Assembly: GCF_044324875.1 (NCBI RefSeq) | Contig: NZ_CP172185.1 | Origin: Escherichia coli | GTDB lineage: Bacteria > Pseudomonadota > Gammaproteobacteria > Enterobacterales > Enterobacteriaceae | Length of the DNA: 64,000 bases | Strand: one strand, 5' to 3' | Part shown: positions 11,801 to 14,800 of the stretch, one piece after another | Position numbering within the stretch: the stretch's first letter is position 1 | Layout: every line of letters begins with the position of its first letter | Made by a program: the position numbers

Positions 11801-14800
11801 GACTGTGCATCGCTGACCCCGGAAACTTTTTTACCGCGAATCCATGTCATTAAAGGTGTGAACATTTCTACGGCGACCGTCTGCCGTCAGTGTGAAGATG
11901 CACCGTGCGCTAACGTCTGCCCGAATGGTGCTATCAGCCGTGATAAAGGGTTTGTTCATGTGATGCAGGAACGTTGCATTGGTTGCAAAACCTGCGTTGT
12001 GGCTTGCCCGTATGGCGCGATGGAAGTGGTGGTACGTCCGGTGATTCGCAACAGCGGCGCGGGGCTGAATGTACGGGCTGACAAAGCCGAAGCCAATAAA
12101 TGCGACCTCTGTAACCATCGTGAAGACGGCCCGGCGTGTATGGCGGCTTGCCCGACCCATGCGCTGATTTGTGTCGATCGTAATAAACTTGAACAACTGA
12201 GCGCAGAAAAACGTCGCCGTACGGCGCTGATGTTCTAAAAATCTTACAGAACTGTTCTGGTATCAAAGGAATTCCCGGAAATATTCGTAGAATACGAAGC
12301 GGGCAGTATCGCCGACCTGTGACTGCCGGATGCGACGCGCTCGTGTCCGGCTGGGCGGGTTACGCAATTCATGATGGCGGGAATAACTCAATGGCAAAAA
12401 ACACATCTTGCGGTGTTCAACTGCGTATTCGTGGCAAAGTGCAGGGCGTCGGTTTTCGTCCGTTTGTCTGGCAGCTGGCACAGCAATTAAATCTTCACGG
12501 CGATGTCTGTAATGACGGCGATGGCGTAGAAGTCCGGCTGCTGGAAGACCCGGAAACGTTTCTTGTTCAATTGCATCAGCACTGCCCGCCGCTGGCGCGT
12601 ATTGATAGCGTCGAGCGTGAGCCGTTTATCTGGTCACAACTGCCCACCGAGTTCACTATCCGTCAGAGCACAGGCGGCGTCATGAATACGCAAATTGTTC
12701 CCGATGCCGCGACTTGTCCTGCCTGTCTTGCTGAAATGAATACCCCGGGCGAGCGGCGTTATCGTTATCCGTTTATCAACTGTACCCACTGCGGCCCACG
12801 TTTCACCATTATTCGCGCGATGCCTTACGACCGCCCGTTTACCGTGATGGCGGCGTTTCCGCTGTGTCCGGCCTGTGACAAAGAATATCGCGACCCGCTC
12901 GATCGTCGCTTCCACGCCCAGCCGGTGGCCTGCCCGGAGTGTGGCCCCCATCTTGAATGGGTAAGTCATGGTGAACATGCAGAACAAGAGGCGGCATTAC
13001 AGGCAGCTATCGCACAGTTAAAAATGGGCAACATTGTCGCCATCAAAGGGATTGGCGGATTTCATCTCGCCTGCGATGCGCGTAACAGTAACGCGGTGGC
13101 GACACTGCGGGCGCGCAAACATCGCCCGGCGAAACCGCTGGCGGTTATGTTGCCAGTGGCAGAAGGTTTACCAGACGCTGCCCGTCAGTTGCTTACCACA
13201 CCCGCCGCGCCGATTGTGCTGGTGGATAAAAAATACGTTCCTGAGCTTTGTGATGATATCGCCCCTGGCCTTAACGAAGTTGGGGTGATGTTGCCTGCGA
13301 ATCCGCTTCAGCATTTGCTGTTACAGGAACTGCAATGTCCGCTGGTGATGACCTCCGGCAACCTGAGCGGTAAACCACCGGCTATCAGCAACGAACAGGC
13401 GCTGGCGGATTTGCAGGGCATTGCCGACGGATTCTTGCTACATAACCGCGACATCGTGCAGCGGATGGATGATTCAGTGGTGCGCGAAAGCGGCGAAATG
13501 CTGCGCCGTTCGCGGGGGTATGTGCCGGATGCGCTGGCTTTGCCTCCGGGTTTTAAAAATGTTCCGCCTGTGCTGTGTCTCGGCGCGGATCTGAAAAACA
13601 CCTTCTGCCTGGTGCGCGGCGAACAAGCGGTGTTGAGTCAGCATCTGGGCGATTTAAGTGACGATGGCATCCAGATGCAGTGGCGCGAAGCGTTACGCCT
13701 GATGCAAAACATCTACGATTTTACCCCGCAATACGTTGTGCATGACGTGCATCCGGGCTATGTCTCCAGCCAGTGGGCGCGCGAAATGAATCTGCCGACG
13801 CAAACGGTGCTGCATCATCATGCTCATGCGGCAGCGTGTCTGGCAGAACATCACTGGCCACTGGATGGCGGTGATGTCATTGCGTTGACGCTCGACGGTA
13901 TCGGTATGGGGGAGAACGGCGCTTTATGGGGCGGCGAGTGCCTGCGGGTGAACTATCGCGAATGCCAGTACCTGGGCGGCTTGCCAGCGGTGGCGCTTGC
14001 TGGGGGCGATTTGGCGGCGAAGCAGCCGTGGCGTAACCTGCTGGCGCAGTGCCTGCGCTTTGTGCCTGAGTGGCAGAATTACCCTGAAACGGCAAGTGTG
14101 CAACAGCAAAACTGGAGCGTGCTGGCGCGGGCCATTGAGCGTGGAATTAACGCGCCGCTGGCCTCATCGTGTGGGCGTTTGTTCGATGCTGTGGCGGCGG
14201 GACTGGGCTGTGCGCCAGCCACGTTAAGTTATGAAGGTGAAGCGGCTTGTGCTCTGGAGGCGCTCGCAGCCTCATGTGACGGAGTGACGCATCCGGTGAC
14301 GATACCGCTGGTGGACAATCAACTGGATCTCGCCACTTTCTGGCAGCAGTGGCTGAACTGGCAGGCACCGGTTAATCAACGCGCGTGGGCGTTTCATGAT
14401 GCGCTGGCGCAGGGTTTTGCCGCGTTGATGCGTGAGCAGGCCACGATGCGCGGTATCACTACGCTGGTATTTAGCGGCGGGGTTATTCATAACCGTTTGC
14501 TGCGTGCACGTCTGGCGCATTATCTCGCTGATTTCACATTGCTCTTTCCACAGAGTTTACCGGCGGGTGATGGCGGCTTGTCTCTGGGGCAGGGGGTTAT
14601 TGCTGCGGCGCGCATCCTGCATGCTGCATAGTGGTGGATGTGGCGTAACTAAGCGTAAAAAGAGCGCGGACAGTCCCCTCGCCCTTTGGGCGAGGGAGAA
14701 AACCATGCCTACACCGGCAACGTTTTCAACAATCCAAACGCCTCTTTCATCCGATCCTCACTGACCACAAAGGCGCGAAGCTGGTCAGTATCGTCAACGC

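Follow-up and report, generated by a model that had tools for sequence, protein, structure and literature searches.

How is hypF of Escherichia coli expressed when the formate regulon is silent? All three [NiFe]-hydrogenases depend on HypF, also those that are produced while that regulon is off, and rpoN and fhlA mutants retain hydrogenases 1 and 2; it follows that hypF needs transcription that does not depend on FhlA. For hypBCDE such an FhlA-independent promoter is located inside hypA, and it is reportedly under the control of FNR. Published work describes hydN-hypF as a single operon under a sigma-54/FhlA promoter upstream of hydN. This sigma-54 promoter 5' of hydN is the only one in the literature that we covered, and literature searches on an internal hypF promoter returned no statement for or against one.

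A reading of the sequence alone had singled out a short palindrome with 6-bp arms in a 150-bp gap between hydN and hypF, and had suggested that it could be either an internal regulatory site or an RNA processing hairpin that separates hypF expression from hydN. Here we follow up that suggestion in a window of 64,000 nucleotides (64 kb) from an E. coli genome (assembly GCF_044324875.1, contig NZ_CP172185.1), to which all coordinates refer unless another record is named.

Results

The palindrome in the hydN-hypF gap is statistically ordinary and allele-specific

The order of genes is ascG-hydN-hypF-norW in the records of K-12 and of strain 2012C-4221, and the two genes had been named correctly. 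In the window both hydN (11711-12238, the last base of the stop codon being 12238) and hypF (12391-14631, with its ATG at 12391) lie on the plus strand, and the gap between them measures 152 bp (12239-12390), the same length as in K-12. A 331-bp query spanning the palindrome found matches of 95-100% identity in 5,425 of 5,426 complete E. coli genomes, every one of them at hydN and hypF.

The palindrome itself, TTCGTAGAATACGAA, is present at 12284-12298 exactly as the sequence-only reading gave it, with perfect 6-bp arms, TTCGTA and TACGAA, around a GAA spacer. By count, however, it is commonplace, because repeats with 6-bp arms reach only chance frequency. Perfect inverted repeats with a 3-nt spacer occur 26 times in the window compared with 17.2 +/- 4.3 in first-order Markov simulations, and when spacers of 0-10 nt are allowed the count is 261 against a simulated 201 +/- 19. 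Among random 154-bp sequences of the composition of the gap, 15% contain at least one 6-bp-arm repeat with a spacer of 3-8 nt and 3.5% at least one with a spacer of exactly 3 nt. A second perfect 6-bp inverted repeat, CAGAAC-T-GTTCTG, is found inside the gap itself at 12247-12259.

The symmetry of the palindrome also varies between strains, since position 12297 is polymorphic in E. coli. An A at this position, which gives the perfect palindrome, is shared by the window, strain 2012C-4221 and two more of the strains sampled, and a G (right arm TACGGA) is found in K-12 and in seven more sampled E. coli; E. albertii and one further Escherichia species have TACGGG. The exact 61-mer of the window around the palindrome is present in 958 of the 5,426 E. 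coli records and the K-12 version of it in 1,989. The perfect 6-bp-arm form is a minority allele, and the palindrome as such is incidental.

Constraint within the gap is nevertheless not uniform in E. coli. The 58 nt that follow the hydN stop codon (12239-12296) are as well conserved as coding sequence, with at least 95% identity to the window in 5,419 of the 5,426 records, a level that 5,407 records reach over the final 58 nt of hydN. Another 58 nt (12297-12354) follow and are hypervariable: just 1,027 records have at least 95% identity there, and 1,377 have 80-90%. Conservation returns immediately ahead of hypF, where the leader block GATGAYKGCGGGAA... and the ribosome-binding region (12368-12390) have no SNPs in 12 Escherichia sequences.

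An asymmetric core is conserved across four genera

To place the gap in a wider setting we collected 80 loci with the N-terminus of HypF as query, taking one genome per species. The two genes stand directly next to each other or overlap in Klebsiella, Raoultella, Enterobacter and several further genera, and within this set a gap of 94-192 bp is limited to Escherichia, Citrobacter, Salmonella and Intestinirhabdus. The gaps of Citrobacter and Salmonella contain pairs of canonical REP elements in several differing arrangements.

When the 15 distinct versions of the gap sequence were aligned, eight columns proved invariant, spelling C-G-T-A-x-A-A-T-A with x being G or A. This core, CGTA[A/G]AATA, occupies 12286-12294 on the plus strand, and it is present once per locus at the orthologous place in all four genera, is missing from the gapless loci and occurs nowhere else in the 64-kb window. 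The conserved block around it reads TCGTAGAATACG in Escherichia, GCGTAGAATACGC in Salmonella and CGCGTAAAATA(CGG) in Citrobacter and Intestinirhabdus. Between the core and the ribosome-binding region of hypF one REP/BIME arrangement is swapped for another, with junctions that abut the motif. The gap of Salmonella Typhimurium carries GCGTAGAAT.

The two halves of the palindrome have fared very differently. The left arm and spacer positions are invariant in 15/15 sequences, apart from the G/A alternation noted above. Three Citrobacter species have TAGA, TAAG and TACA in the right arm and no matching change in the left, so that TACG is lost in 3 of the 13 non-Escherichia species and the right half is changed in 3/15 aligned sequences. 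Because the right arm is lost without compensation and the inner pairs never covary (see below), the conserved feature, as judged from the alignment, is the left-arm and loop sequence and not the palindrome or its helix. The proposed check for conservation across species has given a divided answer, with the core kept in four genera and the palindromic symmetry abandoned in three Citrobacter species.

Synonymous sites between the four genera are near saturation and, on the aligned sequences, the core is conserved well beyond neutral expectation. The gap is an insertion peculiar to the lineage of Escherichia, Salmonella and Citrobacter, and it interrupted an ancestral arrangement of abutting hydN and hypF genes. 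CGTA[A/G]AATA probably arrived at the junction together with the REP elements in the common ancestor of these three genera and has been retained since.

The core contains a hexamer resembling a sigma-70 -10 element

The central six positions of the core, 12288-12293 on the plus strand, read TAGAAT, or TAAAAT in Citrobacter and Intestinirhabdus, and form a putative -10 element for a secondary promoter of hypF, the start of which is predicted at about 12299-12301. TAGAAT matches TATAAT at five of six positions, including the A at position 2 and the T at position 6, and T-12, A-11, A-9, A-8 and T-7 are fixed in all aligned sequences, the third position (G/A) being the only one to vary. Scored with a simple position-weight matrix, TAGAAT has a -10 score in the top 0.07% of positions on the two strands of the window. 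We also ranked the sigma-70-like sites of each locus over the last 40 nt of hydN and the gap; the hexamer is the top-ranked site in 12/12 Citrobacter and Salmonella loci and takes second or third place in Escherichia and Intestinirhabdus.

The remaining promoter elements are less persuasive. The best -35 in Escherichia is AAGGAA, which is unacceptable, and the combined promoter score is merely in the top 1.5% of the window. Candidates with three of six matches, TTCTGA or TTTTCT, are located in the region of the hydN stop codon in Citrobacter and Salmonella, the TTCTGA of Citrobacter being separated from the hexamer by a 16-nt spacer. There is no TGn extended -10 at TAGAAT in the window sequence, and a stricter consensus promoter scan reported no promoter at 12288-12293. 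By the standards of the sigma-70 class, then, the site has the -10 hexamer but neither the -35 nor the extended -10. The tables of Kim 2012, SMRT-Cappable-seq and ROSE have no start-site entry for the gap region, a lack of coverage rather than counter-evidence.

Two further observations speak against reading the hexamer as a -10 box. The CG upstream of it and the A downstream are invariant as well, something that a -10 box by itself would leave unexplained, and a sigma-70-like sequence upstream of hydN, ATGACA-17-CAGAAT (11597-11625), could supply hypF expression that is independent of sigma-54. All the same, the coincidence of the invariant positions with a -10 hexamer, together with the asymmetry of conservation, fits a -10 box better than it fits a hairpin or a dyad operator. 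The most likely reading of the core, to which we give a probability of roughly 0.4, is thus that it represents the -10 hexamer of a weak sigma-70-type promoter for hypF, a promoter that we infer from sequence. The earlier idea of an internal regulatory site is plausible in this form, on account of a conserved and -10-like core, which is another sense than the one first proposed.

Several other identities for the region were considered and rejected. A sigma-54 promoter at CTGG(C/T)ATCAAAGGAATT has no -12 GC at the required GG-N10-GC spacing, and sigma-E, sigma-32 and sigma-S patterns, compared by eye with the consensus sequences, mismatch in spacing or in key bases. TGTTC-N4-ATCAA at 12253-12266, about -41 from the predicted start and so in the position of an FNR class II site, has a degenerate TTGAT half and by eye has no counterpart at the matching place in Citrobacter. 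The core is not part of a repeated mobile element, being unique in the window and present as one copy per locus.

Discussion

A possible weak promoter within the operon

If TAGAAT acts as a -10 element, transcription would start near 12299-12301, approximately 90 nt upstream of hypF, and would provide basal hypF expression independently of the sigma-54/FhlA/formate promoter upstream of hydN. The transcript would begin with a structured 5' leader formed by the REP-derived stem-loop at 12314-12361 that is described below. Such an assignment would give a position to the promoter, independent of FhlA and of sigma-54, that hypF must logically have. It would also be an annotation detail for a well-studied operon, a secondary promoter within it, and would introduce no new principle.

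The closest known parallel is the promoter inside hypA that serves hypBCDE. In both cases a maturation gene for all hydrogenases lies downstream of a sigma-54/FhlA promoter, and upstream of hypF there is likewise a conserved -10-like hexamer. The hypF site differs in being intergenic rather than inside a gene, and its start, -35 and activator site are predicted at most. A further difference is that the hypA-internal promoter is reportedly FNR-dependent, whereas the sole FNR-like sequence in the hypF gap is the degenerate one mentioned above.

Alternative explanations for the core

The idea that the palindrome acts as RNA supposes that CGUA-RAA-UACG, with one to three outer pairs, forms a hairpin on the hydN-hypF mRNA, where it would uncouple hypF from hydN as a signal for processing, stability or protein binding. 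The stem does appear in the fold of the whole gap, and the A-to-G changes in the 3' arm of K-12 and E. albertii keep pairing as G-U, which is possible only on the mRNA strand. Escherichia has U-A or U-G as the fifth pair, where Salmonella and Intestinirhabdus have G-C and C. werkmanii has G-U; this pair is formed in 10/15 sequences and the sixth in 7/15, and all but 2 of 500 shuffles scored lower in covariation. This signal is not specific, however, because shifting the partner by +1 gives a similar score, equal or higher. The inner four pairs never covary, two of them never varying and the other two departing solely by breaking, in 2/15 sequences, and the RAA loop is conserved in sequence although a purely structural stem does not need it. 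Predicted stability rises to -5.2 kcal/mol in Salmonella and -6.3 kcal/mol in Intestinirhabdus, but the stem is weak in the window (-3.6 kcal/mol), no better than shuffles in most Citrobacter (-1.4 kcal/mol) and absent in three Citrobacter species, no stem in register being predicted for two, and the sole mapped RNA end in the gap is found at the REP-like stem-loop and not here. A conserved structured RNA would be recognised by an Rfam match or by compensatory changes, and the palindrome offers no Rfam match and no two-sided change in its inner pairs; an Rfam scan of 11500-13000 with E-values up to 10 gave no match in the gap and two meaningless eukaryotic matches outside it. Nor is the palindrome an intrinsic terminator, which it resembles as a small inverted repeat 3' of a stop codon, for it has two G-C pairs and the low stability already given, and is followed by GCGGGC instead of a U-tract; a terminator scan reported no site in the gap. 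With so weak a stem and no compensatory change in its inner four pairs, the processing hairpin envisaged by the sequence-only reading is not supported at the palindrome, and we regard a hairpin function here as distinctly improbable.

The same symmetry might instead be read in the DNA, with CGTA-N3-TACG as the dyad operator of some regulator that acts on hypF or on the hydN-hypF junction. The palindromic core is kept in Escherichia, Salmonella, Intestinirhabdus and most Citrobacter, and the fifth position differs between Escherichia and Salmonella on both arms together (U-A in the window, G-C in Salmonella and Intestinirhabdus, written as RNA), a hint of selection on a dyad or a hairpin; moreover, the 58-nt 5' part of the gap that is under coding-like constraint in E. 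coli includes the second palindrome as well. Yet conservation is one-sided, with an invariant left arm and spacer and a right arm that is degenerate in three Citrobacter species, and E. coli strains commonly differ at 12297 (A or G). The candidate site is only 11 bp long, and its motif, found nowhere else in the 64-kb window, gives no hint of a regulon. Nor does it resemble the FhlA upstream activating sequence of hydN, and an FhlA site was rejected, the repeats TGTCATC.../GTCGATGACA upstream of hydN (11570-11605), which we take to be the FhlA site, being different from CGTAGAATACG. We consider an operator unlikely. A somewhat better case, if still a doubtful one, can be made for no function at all, the palindrome being a product of chance and the conserved core a relic of the ancestral insertion or kept for non-regulatory reasons. 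Palindromes this large are as frequent as chance predicts, the perfect version is the less common allele, Klebsiella, Raoultella and Enterobacter do without both gap and motif, and no experimental signal is known at the palindrome. Against this, eight bases that stay fixed at one orthologous position in four genera, while the adjoining REP sequences turn over completely, are hard to explain without constraint, and in E. coli the segment varies no more than coding sequence does.

The REP-derived stem-loop and the mapped RNA 3' end

Some 30 nt downstream of the palindrome lies a GC-rich, REP-derived compound stem-loop (12314-12361, plus strand), which is hypervariable in E. coli but always foldable. 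Its inner hairpin (12325-12351) has a folding energy of -18.9 kcal/mol (z = -3.7), and the consensus structure of nine Escherichia sequences reaches -35.4 kcal/mol in spite of many SNPs. We defined a REP as a GC-rich imperfect palindrome of about 35 nt with the head GCCGGATG and the tail TCCGGC, repeated at extragenic sites, and 12324-12351 corresponds to this description: the stem-loop has TGCCGGATGCGRCG...TCCGGC in common with a canonical REP on the minus strand (7361-7394), and is found at the same place as the canonical REP pairs of Citrobacter and Salmonella. The Escherichia copy is degenerate and is not annotated as a REP in the MG1655 record. The palindrome at 12284-12298 is itself no REP: it is AT-rich and 15 nt long, has no second copy in the window and lies outside the variable REP block.

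The sole RNA end mapped in the gap falls at this stem-loop. Term-seq of K-12 MG1655 detected a 3' end at 2837453 on the minus strand in two conditions (Adams et al., bioRxiv 10.1101/2020.07.18.207399), which after conversion of coordinates corresponds to 12363 on the plus strand of the window, 28 nt upstream of hypF and 2 nt beyond the foot of the stem-loop. This end has a Rho score of 1.54, which is not significant, and an intrinsic terminator score of 1.71 compared with a threshold of 3.0, and the authors see RNA processing as the source of those 3' ends that belong to neither the intrinsic nor the Rho-dependent class (bioRxiv 10.1101/2020.07.18.207399). Because the 3' end maps at the foot of the stem-loop, the role of a hairpin that separates hydN from hypF, which had been proposed for the small palindrome, fits the REP-derived stem-loop instead. 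The RNA landmark of the gap is this hairpin, which may mark the stable 3' end of hydN-side transcripts. In having a REP head and tail, and an RNA 3' end at its foot, the stem-loop resembles the REP/BIME elements that stabilise mRNA 3' ends; the difference lies with the palindrome, which is not part of the REP.

A last arrangement would join the core and the stem-loop into one unit, in which transcription starts near 12300 and much of the product ends, or is trimmed, at 12363 to leave a stable small RNA of about 60-65 nt that consists almost wholly of a REP hairpin, with read-through setting the level of hypF expression; alternatively, CGUA-RAA-UACG might be a short conserved signal carried by the mRNA of the operon. 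The FhlA-dependent hydN promoter is expected to be largely inactive in aerobic LB. Very unlikely as we hold it to be, this combined reading would explain the strong orphan Term-seq 3' end that is seen in that medium.

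Origin of the hydN-hypF gap

The 94-192 bp, REP-bearing gap that separates hydN from hypF in Escherichia, Salmonella, Citrobacter and Intestinirhabdus is a lineage-specific insertion, since the two genes abut or overlap in Klebsiella, Raoultella, Enterobacter, Lelliottia and others (L019-L077 of the hypF-bearing loci compared across species). At about 40 further loci hydN is not adjacent to hypF, the HydN-like match being found some 2.2 kb upstream of hypF, at the extreme 5' end of the locus.

Between hydN and hypF in the window lies a REP-derived compound stem-loop (12314-12361), which is present in the record of the K-12 reference strain MG1655 without a REP annotation. 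Its sequence is hypervariable across E. coli genomes, and its folding is kept in every case. Published Term-seq data for MG1655 place an RNA 3' end at position 2837453 on the minus strand (bioRxiv 10.1101/2020.07.18.207399). This end corresponds to window position 12363, 2 nt beyond the foot of the stem-loop.

Directly upstream of hypF is a conserved leader block, GATGAYKGCGGGAA (12371-12390; loci L006-L017 and L091-L100), with an ATG near -20. This ATG starts a mini-ORF of 4-7 codons (MTAGTT*, MMAGK*) in Salmonella and in most Citrobacter, and the stop codon of the mini-ORF abuts or overlaps the start codon of hypF. Escherichia has lost that stop (CAA), so that the reading frame extends to 39 codons and enters hypF out of frame. 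The hypF gene itself carries a 12-nt length polymorphism, measuring 2,241 nt in the window (12391-14631), in strain 2012C-4221 and in some other E. coli, versus 2,253 nt in K-12.

The 3' end of hydN

Two C-terminal forms of HydN were observed (window 12225-12260; loci L006-L020). The protein ends in ...RRRTALMF* in Escherichia, Klebsiella and Raoultella, and is approximately six residues longer in Citrobacter, where it ends in ...AALDSTASLLF*, in Salmonella and, as judged from coordinates, also in Enterobacter. The first 20 nt or so of the Escherichia gap appear homologous to the 3' coding end of Citrobacter hydN, which suggests, from this sequence comparison, that an earlier hydN stop codon arose in Escherichia.

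Hexamers with an 11-nt period run across the hydN stop (12231-12258), comprising TGTTCT (12231), TCTTAC (12242) and TGTTCT (12253). The series looks like the direct-repeat architecture of ArcA-P sites; alternatively, it may be no more than homology with the 3' end of hydN in Citrobacter, where the gene is longer. A second perfect palindrome in the gap, CAGAAC-T-GTTCTG (12247-12259), begins 9 nt past the hydN stop. Escherichia keeps it, although position 12247 is a C/T SNP in some strains, and its Intestinirhabdus counterpart is still recognisable as CCGGAAC-C-GTTCTGG.

Sites upstream of hydN

Upstream of hydN, a sigma-70-like site, ATGACA-17-CAGAAT (11597-11625), adjoins FhlA-type repeats, which we take to be the FhlA site, and precedes the sigma-54 promoter CTGGCATGATTTGTGAA (about 11658). 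Judged by its sequence, the sigma-70-like site could provide an alternative supply of FhlA-independent transcription for the whole operon.
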